Below, piece after piece: positions 1-8,706 of a stretch of 15,565 nucleotides of DNA; positions within the stretch are counted from its first letter, which is position 1, and the number at the start of each line of letters is the position of its first letter. The notes below the pieces were generated by a model. That model had not been told where the DNA came from. It was given only the letters and a program-made list of their open reading frames with translations, and ran no database searches. This stretch comes from a virus. Its lineage: Duplodnaviria > Heunggongvirae > Uroviricota > Caudoviricetes. The position numbers were made by a program, and so were the translations under genes. Location of the stretch: IMG/VR virus record IMGVR_UViG_2667527717_000002. One strand, written 5' to 3'.

Positions 1-349
1 ATAAACTCACTACAACGCACCTGAAACCTCTTGCTATATATATGTCAACCGTTTGAATTTAAAATAAAAAGAGTATCATTTTTACTTGCATTTCTTATCA
101 AGTCACATTCAACAACAGTAAAAAAACATTATTAGAACCATTCAATTAACAAAAAACCAACATCCAGCTTGCTTAATTTTTCTTTATTAAACGATATTGA
201 AAATCAATTGATAAAATACATCTAAACAACCTTTTTGGGCGCAAAAGCATAACATCAAACAAACAAATAACACACCGAAAAAACTCACAATTAATAACCT
301 ATGATATACATACTGTTTATTATGGTTGAATAAGCCACTCGATATCTGG
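1..349. other. AT-rich non-coding tract at the distal end of the tail-fibre module, with A-runs and no ORF of 60 aa or more on either strand
   Basis: Read directly: visibly low GC compared with the tail genes, several oligo-A tracts, no ORF in the supplied six-frame track. Function unknown; could be a prophage boundary or regulatory DNA. Confidence 0.4.
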
Positions 350-785: not shown

Positions 786-1826
786 TTATTTAGACGCAAG
801 CGCCGCATCAATTGCAGATAATCTTTGTCTTAATTCTGCGTTTTCTTCTTCCAGTGCTGTTATTCTGTCGTCTGACTCTCTGGCTACCTGAACAAGCAAG
901 CCAGTAACACCAGAATAATCAACTGTGTAATAACGTTCACCTTCTTCACCTTCCGATCCGCTTGCACCGTCCTGATATTTCATTGCGGAACCTACAACTT
1001 CTGGGATTGCTTCCAGAGCTTCCTGTGCAATGACTCCAGCATAGGGCATACCGTTTTCTTTAAGCGTGTATGTATAGCCGTTCATTTTACGGATGCGGTC
1101 GGTTGCATTATCGATCACCTGAATGTTGTCTTTCAGATCCCGGTCGGAATGCTGGTTAAATGCGGTGGCATGACATGCACCATTAACGCTTAACATATAG
1201 GTGTTATCGGTATTTTTCTGCGCATAGAACATATAAGCGCCACCATCAGCACCAACTTCATATACAACCGGACGGGTAGAGTTACCCCACAAACTAGTAG
1301 TAGCGCCAGAATGAGCGGTTCCCTGTGTGTTGATTGTCATGGTTGACCCATGATTGGCATATTTGATTTGTAATGTGTCTGTGCAGTCAAACTTAATAAG
1401 CGCGTTACTTCCCCGCACACCATACGACATGAGACAGTTCCCCATCTTAAGGTAACCATCACTGCCTGGAAAAATTAATGTTCCGCCGTAAAGATCGCTA
1501 AAATCCCAAAAGATACCTTTTGTTCCATTGTGTGTGACAATCCTTGTCATTGTATCTTTTGTACCGTCAATATTTTTTCTGGTGTACATCTCACTATAAG
1601 CGTTTTCGGTTTCTCCTGTCTTATTTGACAAGTGAATCTTACCGCTAAATATAGTTCCAGTGGTCGGCAATGTCTTTTGATTATAGATTACATTGCAATA
1701 ACTATTCCATGTTGTTTTATTGTCTACATATGATTTTGTTGCGTAGCTTCCTTGATCGTTTTTTAATTTGCTAACGTCGGATTTTAGCGTTTTGATATCA
1801 TCAGGAATTACTGTCGATGTAGCCAT
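786..1826 (-). CDS. Tail fibre or tailspike-like protein with a C-terminal intramolecular chaperone, self-cleaving domain (peptidase S74-like)
   Basis: 346-aa ORF, ATG at 1824-1826 with GAGGA 7 nt upstream. The C-terminal ~110 aa (HSDRDLKDNIQVIDNATDRIRKMNGYTYTLKENG...YAGVIAQEALEAIPEVV...YTVDYSGVTGLLVQVARESDDRITALEEENAELRQRLSAIDAAL) fit the pattern I know from the self-cleaving chaperone domain of endosialidase and other phage fibres. N-terminal ~35 aa are coiled-coil-like; the middle is Gly/Thr/Asn-rich. Lower GC than the lambda-like genes. Confidence 0.75.
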   Translation of the reverse strand: MATSTVIPDDIKTLKSDVSKLKNDQGSYATKSYVDNKTTWNSYCNVIYNQKTLPTTGTIFSGKIHLSNKTGETENAYSEMYTRKNIDGTKDTMTRIVTHNGTKGIFWDFSDLYGGTLIFPGSDGYLKMGNCLMSYGVRGSNALIKFDCTDTLQIKYANHGSTMTINTQGTAHSGATTSLWGNSTRPVVYEVGADGGAYMFYAQKNTDNTYMLSVNGACHATAFNQHSDRDLKDNIQVIDNATDRIRKMNGYTYTLKENGMPYAGVIAQEALEAIPEVVGSAMKYQDGASGSEGEEGERYYTVDYSGVTGLLVQVARESDDRITALEEENAELRQRLSAIDAALASK

Positions 1827-1835
1827 TTTTCTTCC

Positions 1836-2117
1836 TCACATCCAGCCACGAAGTTGATGCTCAACAGCAACCGCGTATTCATCGAATAATGACGATATTT
1901 GCGAATCATTAATGATGCGCACGTTTACAAAATATCCGTCCTCCTTAACACATACCGGCTCGCCATCTTCAGTAAGTTCTCCGGTTTCTTTGTACACATT
2001 ACCTATCACGTCAATAAGAATATCATCCTGCATCGACTCGTCATCATAATAGCCAATACTCTCCATAAAGGCCGAAAAGTCGGCCCTGTCGGCAAATTTG
2101 AGTGTTAAATCTTTCAT
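1836..2117 (-). CDS. Hypothetical small acidic protein (93 aa), translationally coupled to the fibre gene; candidate fibre assembly or adaptor factor
   Basis: ATG at 2115-2117 shares one base with the stf TAA stop (TAATG); GGGGGAG 8 nt upstream; its stop at 1836-1838 lies 9 nt before the next gene's ATG. Sits where lambda has tfa but is shorter and I see no similarity to Tfa. Confidence 0.6.
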   Translation of the reverse strand: MKDLTLKFADRADFSAFMESIGYYDDESMQDDILIDVIGNVYKETGELTEDGEPVCVKEDGYFVNVRIINDSQISSLFDEYAVAVEHQLRGWM

Positions 2118-4495
2118 TAGATTGACTCCCCCATCTGAGCATCAGTCAATGCCTTGTGCCATATTCTGAAATTCCTGACATGACCAAATAAATGACGCAA
2201 CCCAGCTGTAGTCTGGCCTCCAATACGGATAATTGCGGTGTTCTGAATATAGGACCATGTGGCTTTCTTTTCGCTGGATATACGCCCGTTACTTACTGAG
2301 CACGTAGACTGATCTGACTTTACACGCATCCCCATAACCATTTTTTCAAGCGATGCGTTTTCGTTTACCCGTCTGTTAGCCAAACCTATATCGCAATAAG
2401 GAAATCCGTCGTAATCTGTTGAACGACCGAAGCCAAGAATAATAGCCGCTCCGGTTTGATGACCGCCGGTATCAAAAACACGCGGTGCTGCATTTGGCGT
2501 TTTATACCAGTTCTTATGTACCTCACAAAGAACTGTAAAAGGAAGATTATAAAGGTTATTCTTGATTGAGACTGTCACCATATCGCTTGCGCGAGTGCTT
2601 GCAATTATATCAGTTACAATAAATGACGAAGCACTTGATCCACCTTCCACTTGTGGAGTTGCGATATCCAGATAGTCTCCAGATGCTGTGCCTGAACCTT
2701 TTACTGGAGCATATTGAACCATCGCACCAATCATGCTCTCTGTATCTAGTGCATTAATTGTAGCCTGATAGAAAATCCAACCAGTAGCCTCATCTTTTAC
2801 AGCCTTTGCAATAATACGATTTGCTGCACCACCAGTCTTATCAATTACAAGTGTTGATAAATTGAGGTAAGCATCTCCCAAAAAAGTGTAAGTAGAACCA
2901 TCATGATGTTCAAATCTTAAACGACACCTTATATTTTCAACATCACTTCTGACACGGCATGAAATGGTCACATATTTTTCATCACCTGTGACATCAAATC
3001 CTTTACTGCCAGAAACCGTTACGATATTAATCGCACTTGTCTGATCAATAAGAGTATCTTTTACAGTAAATCTCCCATAAGTAAAATTAAAAGAATCCGT
3101 GGATATTTCTGTGAGTTCCAGATTGCCTGACTTATTCCATTTAGATGGATTTGTTGAATTAAGCAGAAGATTAGTTCTTTGCCCCTCAATAAGCAGGCCA
3201 TCACGTTCAAATCGCGGCTCGTCAATGGCAGCCTCTGTCAGTACACCAGATTTATTAATATAGGTTGCTTTCGATGCGCGTTTAAACTTAACAACCTTGT
3301 CACCAGGCATCGTTATTTCATCATCACCAATAACAATCTTTTTATATGATGGCGAAAAGCCCGTAATCATATCCAGTGAATCGTTAAACGGTATCCACAC
3401 ATCGGGAAGCGGCTGCAAAACTTGTTTATACGGCTCCGCAGCCTGGCTTGCATACTCTCTGGCTGCGTCTTCACTTGCTTTTGCAGCCGTCTGGCTTGCA
3501 GCGGATGCTTTCGCCGAGTTAGCCGCCGCAGTCTCGCTCGCCTTTGCGTTGGTTTCACTGGTTTTTGCAGCTTTTTGACTGTTGGCTGATGCAGTGGCAG
3601 AAGAAGCCGCCGCACTTGCAGAACCAGCTGCGGCACTCTCGCTTTGGGCTGCAGCATCCTGACTGTTTTTCGCCGCAGTTTCACTGGCTTTGGCATTCGT
3701 TTCGCTGGTCTTCGCTGCCGTCTGGCTGGACTTTGCGTTAGTTTCACTCGTCTTCGCAGCTTTCTGGCTGTTAGCCGCAGCAGTTGCTGATCCAGCTGCT
3801 GAAGTCGCAGAACCGGCTGCCGCGCTCTCGCTTTGGGCTGCTGCAACCTGGCTGTTTTTTGCCGCAGTTTCACTGGCTTTGGCATTCGTTTCGCTGGTCT
3901 TCGCTGCCGTCTGGCTGGACTTTGCGTTGGTTTCGCTCGTCTTTGCGGCTGTCTCGCTATTTTTCGCGTTGGTTTCTGATTTTTTGGCTGCTGCCGCGGA
4001 GTTTGCTGATGCAGTCTGTGAGGTCGCTGCCGCCTGTGCACTATTAGCTGCATTCGTTTCTGAGGTTTTCGCCGCGTTCTTCGATGATGCCGCTGCAGTT
4101 TCGGATTTCTTTGCCGCCGCTGCGCTCTGAGAGGCGGCTTCAGCGTTGCGTGCCGCTTCTTCCACCATTTCCTCAAAACGACGCAATGCCTCCGGCATGA
4201 CATCATCTTCCGTCATGGCACCGAGAAAATCATTCAGCGTACCTGGTCTGGAACCTTCATAGACGGTAATGGTCCCGGCATGCGAAGGCGGAAAACCTTC
4301 AACCAGCAGGGTGACGCTGTACTGGCCATACTCAACATCCATGCTGTAACGCCCGGCTTCATCAGGATTTTCAGAGGCCACCGTGTTCACCAGTACCGTG
4401 GTGCTGTTACGCTTTGCCTTCAGTTGAATAGTGCAGTTCTGTATTGGTTTTCCCGCACCATCTTTCAGCACACCTGAGATTTTTACTGCTGCCAT
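2117..4495 (-). CDS. stf: Side tail fibre protein (Stf-like): lambda-like N-terminus, Ala/Ser/Thr-rich repeat shaft, and a divergent C-terminal domain predicted to be lectin-like
   Basis: N-terminus MAAVKISGVLKDGAGKPIQNCTIQLKAKRNSTTV...GRYSMDVEYGQYSVTLLVEGFPPSHAGTITVYEGSRPGTLNDFL matches my recollection of lambda Stf. Start taken as the ATG at 4495 (GGAG 5-6 nt upstream) rather than the GTG at 4501. The C-terminal ~450 aa are unlike lambda Stf and end in ...GLRHLFGHVRNFRIWHKALTDAQM, reminiscent of concanavalin-A-like (LamG-like) lectin domains; that fold assignment is inference. Confidence 0.85.
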   Translation of the reverse strand: MAAVKISGVLKDGAGKPIQNCTIQLKAKRNSTTVLVNTVASENPDEAGRYSMDVEYGQYSVTLLVEGFPPSHAGTITVYEGSRPGTLNDFLGAMTEDDVMPEALRRFEEMVEEAARNAEAASQSAAAAKKSETAAASSKNAAKTSETNAANSAQAAATSQTASANSAAAAKKSETNAKNSETAAKTSETNAKSSQTAAKTSETNAKASETAAKNSQVAAAQSESAAAGSATSAAGSATAAANSQKAAKTSETNAKSSQTAAKTSETNAKASETAAKNSQDAAAQSESAAAGSASAAASSATASANSQKAAKTSETNAKASETAAANSAKASAASQTAAKASEDAAREYASQAAEPYKQVLQPLPDVWIPFNDSLDMITGFSPSYKKIVIGDDEITMPGDKVVKFKRASKATYINKSGVLTEAAIDEPRFERDGLLIEGQRTNLLLNSTNPSKWNKSGNLELTEISTDSFNFTYGRFTVKDTLIDQTSAINIVTVSGSKGFDVTGDEKYVTISCRVRSDVENIRCRLRFEHHDGSTYTFLGDAYLNLSTLVIDKTGGAANRIIAKAVKDEATGWIFYQATINALDTESMIGAMVQYAPVKGSGTASGDYLDIATPQVEGGSSASSFIVTDIIASTRASDMVTVSIKNNLYNLPFTVLCEVHKNWYKTPNAAPRVFDTGGHQTGAAIILGFGRSTDYDGFPYCDIGLANRRVNENASLEKMVMGMRVKSDQSTCSVSNGRISSEKKATWSYIQNTAIIRIGGQTTAGLRHLFGHVRNFRIWHKALTDAQMGESI
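3480..4120 (-). repeat. In-frame tandem repeat inside stf with a 189-bp (63-aa) unit: two near-identical copies plus degenerate flanking copies
   Basis: Read directly: gccgcagtttcactggctttggcattcgtttcgctggtcttcgctgccgtctggctggactttgcgtt occurs at 3672 and 3861; gaacc(a/g)gctgc...ctctcgctttgggctgc occurs at 3621 and 3810. Protein level: AAKTSETNAKSSQTAAKTSETNAKASETAAKNSQ(V/D)AAAQSESAAAGSA... twice. Confidence 0.85.
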
Positions 4496-4504
4496 ATCCA
4501 CTCC

Positions 4505-4533
4505 ACAAAAAAGCCCGCCTGAACCGGCGGGCT
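4505..4533 (-). terminator. Intrinsic terminator downstream of lom
   Basis: Eight-bp GC-rich stem (4512-4519 agcccgcc pairs with 4526-4533 ggcgggct), 6-nt loop, followed on the minus strand by UUUUUU (plus 4507-4512 aaaaaa); about 27 nt after the lom stop. Confidence 0.65.
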
Positions 4534-4559: not shown

Positions 4560-5159
4560 TCAGAATTTATAACCGACACCCACGATGAAACCGTCAGTGC
4601 GCCAGTCACCACTGCCGGAACCTTCATAAGCAAGGTCAATGGCCACGGATTCGGTCGGGTTAAACTGCACGCCAGCCCCCCACGCCAGAGACGTGTTGCT
4701 GTGGCGACCGTCATCACTTCCGGTCAGCACATCGTGCGTTTTCCCCTTGTTGTCAGTTACGCGGAGATAATCCCCGGAGAAGGTCGACACACGGCTGTAA
4801 GCCATACCCGCCATCGCATAAGCACTGAACCATTCATTCACGCGTACAGATGGCCCCGCCATCATGCTGAACCAGCGGTTACGCACTGAATCTTCATGCC
4901 AGCGGGTATCGCTGTAATGCGTTTTTTGCTCATCTTTGGCATTGGCATAACTGAATGACGTCACCAGCCCCAGCGTGTCCGTAAATTCATAACGGTATTT
5001 CACGTTAATGCCCTTCAGGTCATCACTGCCTGGCATATCAGTATGGGTCTGAAGATACCCGGCGCTTAGTGTGGACTGATGCTCTGCTGCGCTCGCTGGC
5101 GTACCAGCGGCAACCAGCCAGACTACTGCGGACAGAATAACAGCACATAATTTACGCAT
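4560..5159 (-). CDS. lom: Lom, an Ail/Lom-family outer-membrane beta-barrel protein (prophage accessory gene)
   Basis: 199 aa with an N-terminal signal peptide (MRKLCAVILSAVVWLVAAGTPASA) and C-terminal ...AYEGSGSGDWRTDGFIVGVGYKF, matching my recollection of lambda Lom; GAGAGG 4-5 nt upstream. Confidence 0.9.
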   Translation of the reverse strand: MRKLCAVILSAVVWLVAAGTPASAAEHQSTLSAGYLQTHTDMPGSDDLKGINVKYRYEFTDTLGLVTSFSYANAKDEQKTHYSDTRWHEDSVRNRWFSMMAGPSVRVNEWFSAYAMAGMAYSRVSTFSGDYLRVTDNKGKTHDVLTGSDDGRHSNTSLAWGAGVQFNPTESVAIDLAYEGSGSGDWRTDGFIVGVGYKF

Positions 5160-5226: not shown

Positions 5227-8200
5227 TCAGCTGATACTGATGCCTGCGGTGGCTTTCTTCATCACCACAACCAGCAAATCGCTGATACTTGCTGTGGGAT
5301 ACCAGTCATTTACCAGCCATGCTGACACCGAAAACTCCAGCGTCATGTGACCGTGACCGGCAGGCATATCAATAACGCCACTGTAAATCAGCGTATTATC
5401 CAGCGCGGTACGGTTATAAATTTCAGCACCGTTTTTCCGCACTATCAGACGGCATGAGGAGTAAATATCAGTATGCTCTCTCTCATGTTTAGCGCCGCTG
5501 AATGCCACCGCCGGAATAACAATCTGCCGGTCAAACGGCTGATCGTCATAAACCCTGACGGTAATGGTCCCTGATGGCCACCGTTCCGGTGCACGGGAGT
5601 CCCGGGGGAAAGCTTTGCCCACTGTTTTAACGAGATCGCCTTCAATCTGGTTCGCGGACAGTTTTCCCAGAACCCGGCAGTTCTCGTTAATCGTGACGTT
5701 GTTGAGCGTCCCGGAGTTCGCATTCACGTTACCGCTGATATCGGCATTTTTCGCCGTCAGCCGCCCGTCCGGTGTCAGGGAAAATGCCGGAGGATTACCG
5801 CCGCTGGTAATGGTGGGAGCCGTCAGATATTTCAGGAACACTTCGTTCATGAATATCTGATCGCCCTGACCAACAAACATCGGCTTTGTGTTGCCATTCG
5901 CAGGATTAACCATCGCAATCCTGTCCGCCGCCAGCAGCACCTGACTCTGCATGCCGTCAGGGGTGTTCTCAATACCGGCACCAATACCCGCGATATAAAG
6001 GCGTCCGTCCTGCATCTGCTGCAGCTTCACAGCCCACATGCTGTTCAGGTTATTATTTGTATCAACCTGAACCTTCTGTATCTGCTGAATTGCCGCACTC
6101 TGGTCTTCCAGTTTCTTATTGACGGTCTGCGTGATTTCATTGCTGACATCCGTAATGGACGTCCTGATTTCAGCCAGGTCAGGCGCAAGCTGACCGTTAT
6201 CAATCTGCGTCCACAGCTCCTGAGCCAGATGGCTTTTCCCTATCTCGCCTTTGAAAAAATCCAGATAGCCGGATGCATCATCACTCGGCTGGCCAACAGC
6301 CTCCACAAATGCCGATTTGCCAACGGTGTTCACACTGCGGATGTAAAAATAATAATCATGGCCCGGTTTGATATTGATACTGGCGGCTATCCAGTACAGC
6401 GCCGTGCCAAGATAGCGGGCTGTGGTTTCAACCTGCCTGATATCGGTAATCCGCGTTTCCGAGAACCAGAACTCAAACTGTACCGTCGGATCATAAACCG
6501 CAAGATGCGGCGTGGCAGTTATCTGAAAATAGCCCGGCGTCAGCTCAATCCGCGACGGCGCTGCCGGTGCGGCAATCCGGAACGATACCGATGCCGGATC
6601 GCCCTGCTGTCCCCACGCATTTACCGCCCGGACCGTCAGCGTGTAACGCCCCAGCGCCAGTTGCCTGAAGCGGTATGTGGTTTCCGTCGTCCTGGCCGTG
6701 CTGACCAGCCGCTCACTGCCGTCGTCCGCTGCCACGGTCAGGCGAAGCAGGAAGCTCACGCCCTTCACCACCTTCGGCGTGTCCCAGCGGGCCAGTACCT
6801 GATACTCCCCGCTGTCTGCAGTGACTTCGGCAGTCAGGTGCTGCACCGCTGGCGGCGTGACACCATTCACCGTGCCGCTCTGGTCACCGTCAAAGTGCGC
6901 CCCGTTATCCACGATGGCTTCTTTCTCCGGTACATGCTGCACGGCAGTGATGGCATACGTGCCGTCGTCGTTCTCACGGATACTCACACAGCGGAACAGT
7001 CGCTGACGCAGCGTCGGCAGCTTCAGCCCCCATACGCTGTATTCAGCAACACCGTCAGGAACACGGCTCACTTTTACCTTCACGCCGTCGGTGACGGACT
7101 GAACCTCCACGCTGACCGGATTGCCACTTCCGTCAACCAGGCTTATCAGCGTGGTACCGGAGGATGGCAGCGTGATTTCACGGTCGAGCGTCAGCGTCCG
7201 GGTCTGGCTGTTTACCGCCAGCACGCGCCCGCCGGTGCTGATACCGGCATAGTCATCATCGCAGATTTCAATGACATCGCCCGGTACATGGCGAAGCCCT
7301 TCTGCACCCACGCTGAAGTCCACGGTCTGCGTTTCCAGCAGTTCCGTTTTAATCAGCCACAGCCCGGCGCGGTGCGCCTGCCCCCGGCTGGTACAGCCAA
7401 AGGCATCCATCTTCGTGACATTACGACCGTAACGGGCAATGGCCTGCGTATCTTCAACAAGCTCTGTCGCCGTCTCCCAGCCGTTGTTCGGGTCAATCCA
7501 GTTCACCTCAACGGCATTATGGCGGTCCTTCAGGGCGCTGAAGCTGTAGCGGAACGGCGCGCCATCATCCGGCATCACCACATTACTGCGGTTATAGGTC
7601 CACACCTTATCTGATGGTCGGTCCTGCACGAACGTCAGCGTCTGCCCGTTCCATACCGGCATACAGCGCATCGCCGAGCAGAAATCACTGAGCACATCCC
7701 ACGCCTTACGCTGCGTGGTCAGGTAGGCATTACAGGTGATGCGCGGCTCCGTGCCGCCAAAACCGTCCGGCACTGACTGGTCGCAGTACTGGCCGATGAC
7801 ATACAGCGCCCATTTATCCACATCCGCCGCACAAAGACGTTTCCCCATGCCGTAGCGCGGGTGGGTCAGCATATCCCACAGACACCAGGCCGGGTTGTTG
7901 CTGTATGCCGGCTTAAACGTTCCGTCCCAGATACCGCTGTATTGCCGCGTCTGCGGGTTATAGTTCGACGGCACCTGCAGAATGCGCCCGCGAAGATGAT
8001 AATTACGGCTCACCTGCTGGCTGCCGAACTGCTCCGAGTCCACCTGCACGCCGACCAGTGCCGTGTTCGGGTAGCACTGTTTCACATCGATGATTTCGGT
8101 GTATGACGACCAGAGCGTTTTGTTCTGCAGCTGGTCTGTGGTGCTGTCCGGCGTCATCCTGCGCATCCGGATATTAAACGGGCGCGGCGGCAGGCTACCC

Positions 8201-8706
8201 ACCACCACCGAGGCCAGATACTGCGAGGTGGTTTTGCCCTTAATGGTGATGTCTTTTTCCGTCACCCAGCCACCGTTACGTTGTATCTGAACCAGCAGAC
8301 GGACTTCCGACGGATTCCTGTCCCCCTTTGAGGTGGTTTCCACCAGTGCCTGTACACCGAAGGTAAAGCGCAGACGGTCGATGTTTGCAGACGTAATGGT
8401 GCGGGTGATCGGCGTGTCATATTTCACTTCCGTACCCAGCACCGTCTCGGAGCCGGAGGATTCAAACCCCTCCGGCGGTGTCTGCTCCTGCTCACCGGCA
8501 CGGAACACCACCGTGACACCGGAGATGTTGGTATTCCCCTCAGTGTCCAGCACCGGCGTACTGTTCAGCAGCACGCTTTTTAATCCATCCACCGGACCTT
8601 CAACCGGCCCTTCGCTGATGGCATCGATCACACTCAGCAACTGCGTGGACTTCAGGTTGTCCTTCGCTTCGCGCGGGGTATGCCCCTTACTGCTTCCTTT
8701 ACCCAT
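5227..8706 (-). CDS. J: Tail tip, central fibre, host-specificity protein J
   Basis: 1159 aa beginning [34 protein letters not shown]...; most of the length is close to lambda J as I recall it. GTGAGGA upstream of the ATG. Confidence 0.95.

Follow-up and report, generated by a model that had tools for sequence, protein, structure and literature searches.

A three-gene fiber cassette in a lambda-like Escherichia coli prophage may encode a branched side tail fiber with two receptor-binding proteins

Introduction

The T5-like phages DT57C and DT571/2 have branched, L-shaped fibers in which the tail-anchored protein LtfA carries LtfB, each with an O-antigen specificity of its own (PMC4728585; PMC10713586), and a dependence of LtfB on LtfA has genetic support (Golomidova et al. 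2016, PMC4728585; Ayala et al. 2023, PMC10713586). For the Tequintavirus IrisVonRoten (Bas32), an AlphaFold-Multimer model places the distal fiber Gp24 on the proximal Gp22, which has a "galectin-like" C-terminal domain (Fig 12B in Humolli et al. 2025, PMC11990801), and the authors proposed that this lectin-like domain serves as an additional receptor-binding domain (PMC11990801). The head fiber Rcc01080 of the Rhodobacter capsulatus gene transfer agent (RcGTA) is a flexible single subunit that binds capsule polysaccharide and provides the first, reversible attachment (Bardy et al. 2020, PMC7296036; Westbye 2016). Here, we describe a cassette of three genes in a 15,565-nucleotide stretch of viral DNA (IMG/VR virus record IMGVR_UViG_2667527717_000002; the window), which holds minus-strand genes of a lambda-like prophage of Escherichia coli. 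The cassette lies 3' of the V-to-J tail block and consists of a side tail fiber gene (stf), a small gene for a 93-amino acid (aa) protein, and a gene for a 346-aa second fiber (gene 3).

Side tail fibers determine which of the surface polysaccharides of E. coli can be passed by a lambdoid phage. We favor, with moderate confidence, the reading that the cassette encodes a branched side tail fiber with two receptor-binding proteins that was gained by module exchange, and the module probably lets the phage recognize two surface receptors. With it, a lambda-type particle would carry two binders directed at glycans or lipopolysaccharide instead of the classical Stf-Tfa pair. The cassette is common: of 5426 complete E. 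coli genomes, 135 contain a version that spans at least 80% of the region.

Results

Gene organization and module exchange

A first description of the window, made from its letters without database searches (the sequence-only reading), had reported three translationally linked genes, and the genes, the overlap, and the spacer were all found again. The stop codon of stf overlaps the start codon of the 93-aa gene (TAATG), and the stop codon of the latter is followed by a 9-nt spacer (GGAAGAAAA) and the ATG of the 346-aa gene, with GAGGAAG spanning the stop. The open reading frame (ORF) of stf reaches upstream of its ATG to a GTG at 4501. Because each of the three products matches a single PHROG from end to end (E = 0 for Stf, 5e-46 for the 93-aa protein, and 6e-208 for the 346-aa protein), the ORFs are conserved genes and not chance ORFs. 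Gene 3 is in frame with the 93-aa gene, with one UGA and three codons between them (window 1824-1838), so that programmed read-through would yield a fusion protein; this possibility was considered and rejected, as the in-frame spacing is lost in KarlJaspers (2 nt) and KarlBarth (11 nt).

Stf is a chimera: residues 1-354, made up of a lambda-type anchor and an Ala-rich shaft, are joined to a head of ~435 residues that was imported. The anchor matches a chain of solved structure (9e7m_Ta, "Tail fiber protein"; E 8e-49), and Stf shares 59% identity over 341 aa with lambda orf-401, rising to ~85% in the first 120. Beyond approximately residue 350, comparison with lambda Stf revealed no similarity, in agreement with the early description of a lambda-like N-terminus joined to a different C-terminal domain. 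The N-terminal half is of the lambda type, having PF08400 and an orf-401-like, Ala-rich shaft; the distal half is not, having neither an orf-314/T4 gp37-like end nor a tfa gene downstream. A Pfam scan found no S74 domain in Stf.

The first 354 stf codons have a guanine-plus-cytosine content (GC) of 0.55, comparable to that of lom (0.54) and J (0.57), and a low-GC block (0.41-0.42) occupies 786-3433, i.e., Stf residues 355-792 together with both downstream genes. All three genes had been described as visibly lower in GC than the tail block; this is correct for 786-3433 and incorrect for the first 354 codons of stf. From about AEPYK-QPLPDVW on, Stf is 87-93% identical to the lateral fiber of a Salmonella T5-like phage (Tequintavirus) that has a T5 pb1-like N-terminus. 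Since the lambda-like half of Stf gives way inside stf to a head like that of a T5-like phage, the mobile unit comprises the head, the small gene, and the second fiber gene. Phages of the T5-like, T1-like, 9g-like, and Dhillonvirus groups have the same C-terminal head, small gene, and second fiber gene joined to N-termini that are unrelated; by taxon, the trio is found in Drexlerviridae, Dhillonvirus, Nonagvirus, and Tequintavirus. The parts of the cassette recombine independently in at least five phage groups. A tfa stump beyond the cassette (Table 1), which resembles the terminal tfa fragments of DLP12 in K-12, is consistent with a relic of an older, displaced stf-tfa arrangement. The exchange of modules that had been proposed for this locus is, therefore, well supported by the GC step inside stf, the recurrence of the module behind unrelated N-termini, and the tfa stump.

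Table 1. Positions of the fiber cassette, its domains, and its neighbors in the window.
Feature	Position	Strand	Basis
J	5227-8706	minus	lambda-like tail block
lom	4560-5159	minus	between J and fiber cassette
Terminator-like hairpin after lom, upstream boundary of fiber unit	4512-4533	minus	8-bp stem, 7 G-C pairs, then T run
stf, chimeric side tail fiber, 792 aa from ATG	2117-4495 (stop codon included)	minus	ORF, phrog_1419
Prophage tail fiber N-terminal domain, lambda-type tail-tip anchor, Stf residues 3-132	4100-4489	minus	PF08400, E 7.3e-67
Ala/Ser/Thr-rich repeat shaft, Stf residues 133-354, native to lambdoid backbone	3434-4099	minus	orf-401 alignment, GC 0.55
Imported head module, Stf residues 355-792	2120-3433	minus	GC 0.41; 87-93% identity to Tequintavirus fiber
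GTA head-spike-fiber-like beta-sandwich resembling a carbohydrate-binding module, putative glycan-binding domain, Stf residues 435-636	2588-3193	minus	NF048003
93-aa acidic accessory protein gene	1836-2117	minus	ORF, phrog_1361 (function unknown)
Second fiber gene, 346 aa	786-1826	minus	ORF, phrog_4563
Conserved N-terminal motif MATSTVIPDDIKTLKSD, putative docking peptide, second-fiber residues 1-17	1776-1826	minus	sequence conservation
Peptidase_S74 intramolecular chaperone, second-fiber residues 227-278	993-1148	minus	PF13884, E 6.4e-14, profile positions 1-57 of 58
Terminator-like hairpin directly 3' of second fiber gene	765-779	minus	GGGGCCGAGCGCCCC then GTTTTATT
Predicted membrane protein with two transmembrane segments, 97 aa, outside imported block	450-743	minus	phrog_1443 (function unknown), GC 0.53
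3' remnant of tail fiber assembly (tfa) gene, 37 codons	320-430	minus	translation; in E. coli 7CC, RefSeq label partial tail fiber assembly protein

Conservation of the gene 3 N-terminus

We surveyed 184 loci, comprising 113 distinct haplotypes; a scan of genome contigs contributed only 4 of the loci. In 129 of the 184, the gene 3 product opens with M-[AV]-[TI]-x-T-[VN]-I-P-x-D-I, and in 127 of these 129 the gene starts 9 nt after the small gene. When nine gene-3 types ranging from 98 to 581 aa were compared, residues 1-17 showed a mean identity of 70% and the bodies 30%. The putative plug was encountered only directly after the small gene, 2-20 nt downstream. A tblastn search with the N-terminal 37 residues returned 60 phage records, all from groups that carry the small gene, with gene 3 starting 10-20 nt past it where coordinates were comparable. 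Tritos, 2G7b, HannyBb, and PhiR63_1, all of them isolated and viable phages, carry the cassette. The carrier phages share no tail-tip proteins (T5 LtfC/pb-type vs lambda J), so the partner of the plug must be in the cassette, as either the head or the small protein. The conservation of the plug on nine different bodies, its occurrence only after the small gene, the unrelated tail tips of its carriers, and the IrisVonRoten model make a two-component fiber, as the sequence-only reading had suggested, the best reading of the cassette.

The Stf head

The central domain of the head, the only one modeled with confidence by AlphaFold2 (AF2), has a carbohydrate-binding module (CBM) fold. The NCBIfam profile for the GTA head spike fiber domain, NF048003, matched this part of Stf with 57.9 bits (cut-off 36), and a phmmer search against the PDB aligned residues 404-651 with RcGTA Rcc01080 (6tb9 chain F3; E 6.4e-5). 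Because the head is homologous to this capsule-binding head spike fiber and has a CBM-like fold, it is probably a receptor-binding domain and not merely a dock. The head has many allelic forms. Across 21 non-redundant head versions, a frame made up of residues 362-441 and 767-792 is conserved (0.74-0.99), and variability lies in 452-616 and 677-766 (0.40-0.63). At the level of sequence, a receptor-binding domain whose binding surfaces can be exchanged on a fixed scaffold shows such a pattern. That the frame around the head core is LamG-like is our own reading and is unproven. Within the cassette, only the conserved frame or the 93-aa protein would seem able to form a socket for the plug.

The C-terminal domain of Stf had earlier been suggested as a possible docking site for the 346-aa protein. 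In that form the idea is not supported, in view of the homology to the capsule binder, the CBM-like fold, and the failure of the variable parts to track the second fiber. The variable last domain of Stf was rejected as the dock, as its last 160 residues fall into at least five types that assort independently of gene 3. One locus (L007) combines a phage-21-like Stf tail with a second fiber, and another (L142) has a window-like Stf tail without one. More than 2500 relatives of the head module were present in the protein collection. The module also occurs on P2-type fiber N-termini (PF03406/PF12571; P0220 and P0257) and on a 1478-aa rV5-like fiber (L009, EmilHeitz), and these grafts indicate that it crosses between siphovirus and myovirus tails.

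The 93-aa protein

The 93-aa protein has an isoelectric point of 4.05, and AF2 returned a compact, confident small alpha/beta fold with an exposed beta-sheet and a pLDDT (predicted local distance difference test) value of 84.7. No match was obtained in Pfam, NCBIfam, or the PDB, and a fold search gave no informative match. Nor is the protein an ordinary Tfa-type chaperone (Caudo_TAP, lambda Tfa/Mu U), since profile searches revealed no likeness and hhalign assigned a probability of 0.1% to a relationship with lambda Tfa. The family is small, with 94 clusters at 50% identity, and was found in 181 phage records from lambdoid phages, Drexlerviridae, Dhillonvirus, Nonagvirus, Tequintavirus, and Vequintavirus.

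In all 184 loci the small gene starts at the stop codon of the head-bearing fiber gene, and distant environmental homologs again follow a fiber ending in ...RHLRIWHRALTD. The gene persists, with good conservation, in rV5-like phages and in 47 loci of the phage-21 type, all of which lack a second fiber. Phage 21 (L006) and the 47 related loci have the same head type and small protein, and a membrane-protein gene follows 12 nt on. Because the small gene always follows the head, even where there is no second fiber, the head is its primary partner. As Stf has neither Tfa nor an S74 domain, we infer for the 93-aa protein a role as assembly factor of the head, and it may be retained on the fiber. 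A literature search that covered the CRISPRi-ART EdH4, Eligo Stf-engineering, SIA3lw, and swan01 work found no functional data on it.

A structural adaptor would account for the 93-aa protein differently: it would stay on the Stf head in the virion, not acting as a chaperone, and would itself be the socket for the plug peptide. The start of gene 3, with its motif, always adjoins the small gene, which fits such a role, as do the compact, confident fold with its exposed beta-sheet and the GenBank label "tail fiber protein" of the IrisVonRoten homolog; in the Salmonella T5-like cassette, moreover, the Stf head keeps ~90% identity, and divergence is shared by the small protein, at 41%, and the plug, at 10 of 17. 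The small protein is, however, equally conserved in the 47 loci and the rV5-like phages that have no motif-bearing fiber, and plug variants are loosely tied to small-protein clades, given that KarlJaspers and KarlBarth share TNIPADITALK and differ in their small proteins. An exhaustive profile search also found no fusion of the 93-aa domain to a fiber; its multi-stretch matches in giant PKD- or TPR-repeat proteins were judged spurious. On balance, we consider the adaptor unlikely and prefer an assembly factor.

The second fiber

The 346-aa protein is a complete short fiber with its own tip, and not a detached chaperone or a fragment of stf. Its S74 domain opens with SDRDLKDNI, and the sequence HSDRDLKDNI at residues 226-235 includes the Ser-Asp-x-Arg-x-Lys motif; on the basis of family membership, the domain would be expected to cleave itself off. 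Residues from ~30 or 70 to 342 match the C-termini of 1210-aa and 1567-aa fibers (phrog_6578 and phrog_5668), and the tip is T5-pb1-like. As phrog_6578 also matches the N-terminal region of Stf, the same tip exists fused to a long fiber elsewhere. The sequence-only reading had, thus, correctly recognized a chaperone domain at the end of this protein; the domain is not an orphan.

Labels such as "endosialidase chaperone" and "putative lateral tail fiber chaperone" on homologs in ESCO3, KarlJaspers, JK16, and others would make the 346-aa protein a folding chaperone that acts in trans on Stf and is absent from the virion. Such a function would suit an Stf that has no chaperone domain of its own and has lost tfa, and it would suit the gene 3 of T1-like phages, which encodes only 221-224 aa with a mature part of ~100 residues. 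We regard this explanation as very unlikely. The S74 domains of endosialidase, T5 pb1, and phi29 gp12 act in cis on the fiber that they terminate. Residues 30-226 of the protein are homologous to the receptor-binding tips of long fibers, and the gene-3 bodies are hypervariable like receptor-binding proteins, with only the N-terminal 17 residues fixed. The T5-like versions are fibers of 574-586 aa with two receptor-binding domains (PMC11990801), and phage-21-type Stf heads manage without gene 3.

Attachment of the second fiber

If the second fiber were an independent appendage, it would be attached to J or some other baseplate protein at the tail tip instead of to Stf, and the adjacency of the genes would reflect a clustering of fiber genes. 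Some phages do encode separate fiber sets side by side, and the link to Stf is drawn here from sequence comparisons; even so, the same plug recurs in lambdoid phages and in T1-like, 9g-like, T5-like, and Dhillonvirus phages despite their unrelated tail-tip proteins, and it is never seen unless the head and small-gene pair lies upstream, which renders this arrangement highly improbable. It is scarcely credible that the locus is decaying prophage DNA in which the 346-aa ORF is a 3' end that a frameshift has detached from stf and the 93-aa ORF is an artifact: the E. coli 7CC copy, 99.9% identical, has stf annotated as two coding sequences and a few loci (L016, L036, and L146) have truncated genes, but all three ORFs of the window are intact, Stf has a conserved C-terminus (RHLFGHVRNFRIWHKALTD), gene 3 is a gene of its own with a separate ribosome-binding site and ATG and an N-terminus that is conserved, plaque-forming lytic and temperate phages retain the trio, and the end-to-end PHROG matches, the conservation of the gene-3 start, and the 184-locus survey refute decay.

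Several points weigh against a branched fiber in which the second fiber docks on Stf. Phage-21-type loci keep the conserved frame and a well-conserved small protein without a second fiber, and because both are kept in this way, neither can be said to exist for docking. Attachment to Stf is supported indirectly, by sequence comparison and a published prediction (PMC11990801); the IrisVonRoten arrangement is itself a prediction, and that paper mentions neither a small protein nor a plug peptide (PMC11990801). The clade of the small protein tracks the presence of the second fiber, an association that is confounded by gene adjacency; as the genes are neighbors, linkage explains it. The frame that we propose as the socket was modeled by AF2 at pLDDT <50, the flanks 354-446 and 620-792 being modeled poorly, and the match to Laminin_G_3 is sub-threshold (15.5 bits vs a cut-off of 27.6, E 0.02) and covers the last 50 residues only. 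No relative of known function was detected for the small protein, for which a chaperone role is suggested by context, and virion proteomics data were not found.

Other features of the locus

The shaft region contains tandem repeats within 3524-3976 (a 189-nt unit at 3524-3958 in 2.3 copies with 84% matches, and nested periods of 42 and 21 nt). The shaft repeats create long spurious ORFs on both strands, e.g., at 3367-4206 (minus) and 3690-4130 (plus). Terminator-like hairpins at 4533-4512 and 779-765 bracket the cassette; they come from a consensus scan only and are weak by themselves, as the scan gave 5 sites compared to 5.5 expected in shuffled sequence.

The gene for the 97-aa membrane protein follows the cassette in lambdoid prophages with or without a second fiber and may be a moron or exclusion gene. 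In phage 21 it directly follows the 92-aa gene, and in the window the hairpin separates it from the fiber genes. Tritos (L002, 2267-2857) has a gene for a PinR-type site-specific recombinase just past the cassette and the membrane-protein gene, which may be left over from an invertible fiber segment.

A copy of the region that is 99.9% identical adjoins appY-ompT in E. coli strain 7CC. In that copy (L001, 7818-10196) stf is annotated as two coding sequences of 573 and 205 aa, pointing to a frameshift, a stop, or a sequencing error in that copy; in the window, stf is intact. Window positions 1-319 form a very AT-rich prophage edge (27.6% GC) and correspond to the region upstream of appY in 7CC. 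Because of this correspondence, the prophage is placed at a DLP12-like position beside appY-ompT.

Discussion

On the reading that the cassette encodes a branched side tail fiber with two receptor-binding proteins, the following sequence of events can be proposed. Late, Q-antiterminated transcription would pass the hairpin after lom, and the three genes would be expressed together. The 93-aa protein would act as the dedicated assembly partner of the head, replacing the lost Tfa, and may stay bound as a component of the socket. The head would bind a surface polysaccharide, either O-antigen or capsule. The short fiber would trimerize by means of its C-terminal chaperone, which would cleave itself off at SDRDLK to leave ~226 residues, and the N-terminal peptide of this fiber would plug into the conserved frame of the Stf head, the 93-aa protein, or both, adding a second receptor specificity.

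A bolder proposal, which we offer tentatively and with more doubt than confidence, is that the 93-aa protein founds a new family of fiber-tip accessory proteins and, together with the conserved head frame, forms a universal socket for a 17-residue plug (consensus M-A/V-T-x-T-V/N-I-P-x-D-I-x-x-L-K). If this were true, a plug-and-socket joint would let relatives of lambda, T1, 9g, and T5 trade second receptor-binding fibers freely, and new receptor-binding proteins could be bolted onto lambda-based delivery particles with no re-engineering of Stf. Confirmation of the plug and the socket would give annotators the rule that ORFs labeled "chaperone of endosialidase" are true fibers, would explain the exchange of second fibers between unrelated phages, and would provide a modular handle for retargeting lambda-derived vectors.

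Comparison with known systems

IrisVonRoten is the closest in its genes: bas32_0022, bas32_0023, and bas32_0024 are homologous one for one to the genes of the cassette and lie in the same order. The last 160 residues of the head are 76% identical, the 92-aa protein is 39% identical, and the second fiber starts with MVTKTVIPTDITKLKNE and ends in an S74 chaperone. The anchor, however, is of the T5 pb1/LtfC type in that phage and of the lambda Stf/PF08400 type here, and the distal fiber of IrisVonRoten is a T-shaped protein of 574 aa with two receptor-binding domains, whereas the 346-aa fiber has one T5-like tip. The IrisVonRoten arrangement comes from structure prediction and not from experiment. 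The same three-gene cassette is also found in Salmonella phage vB_Si_CECAV_FGS017.

The fibers of DT57C follow the same branching logic, with a tail-anchored fiber bearing a second fiber, but no sequence relationship was detected (BLASTP E 0.49 for the Stf head vs LtfA and 2.5 for the second fiber vs LtfB). The N-terminus of LtfB (MSRPLMPKSGAM..., phiEco32 gp15-like) is unrelated to the plug motif, LtfA has an S74 chaperone of its own, and no small gene lies between ltfA and ltfB. Membership in the DT57C-type LtfA/LtfB group, with its phiEco32 gp14/gp15-like junction, was considered and ruled out by the BLASTP results and the comparison of N-termini.

With the Stf-Tfa pair of lambda (Ur-lambda), the locus shares the N-terminal anchor, the shaft, and the position after J and lom. 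It differs in that the distal half of Stf has been replaced, Tfa survives only as a 3' stump, a second fiber gene has been added, and the 93-aa protein is unrelated to Tfa. The likeness to RcGTA lies in Stf residues 404-651, which are homologous in sequence to Rcc01080. That protein decorates capsid pentons by means of an N-terminal Leu-repeat peptide, whereas the domain here ends a trimeric tail fiber shaft and is embedded in a larger, putatively LamG-like frame.

In the anchor-branch dual receptor-binding proteins of Klebsiella podophages and in gp66/gp63.1 of G7C, a short conserved N-terminal peptide of the second protein reportedly docks on a conserved domain of the first, tail-anchored one, and this docking is said to let the receptor-binding bodies be exchanged freely. 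Those systems reportedly differ from the cassette in that the docking domain is T4 gp10-like and lies near the N-terminus of the first protein, the proteins are podovirus tailspikes, and there is no small accessory protein. An apparatus of the kind considered here is already described in T5-like phages, and the cassette of this prophage is a new lambdoid case.

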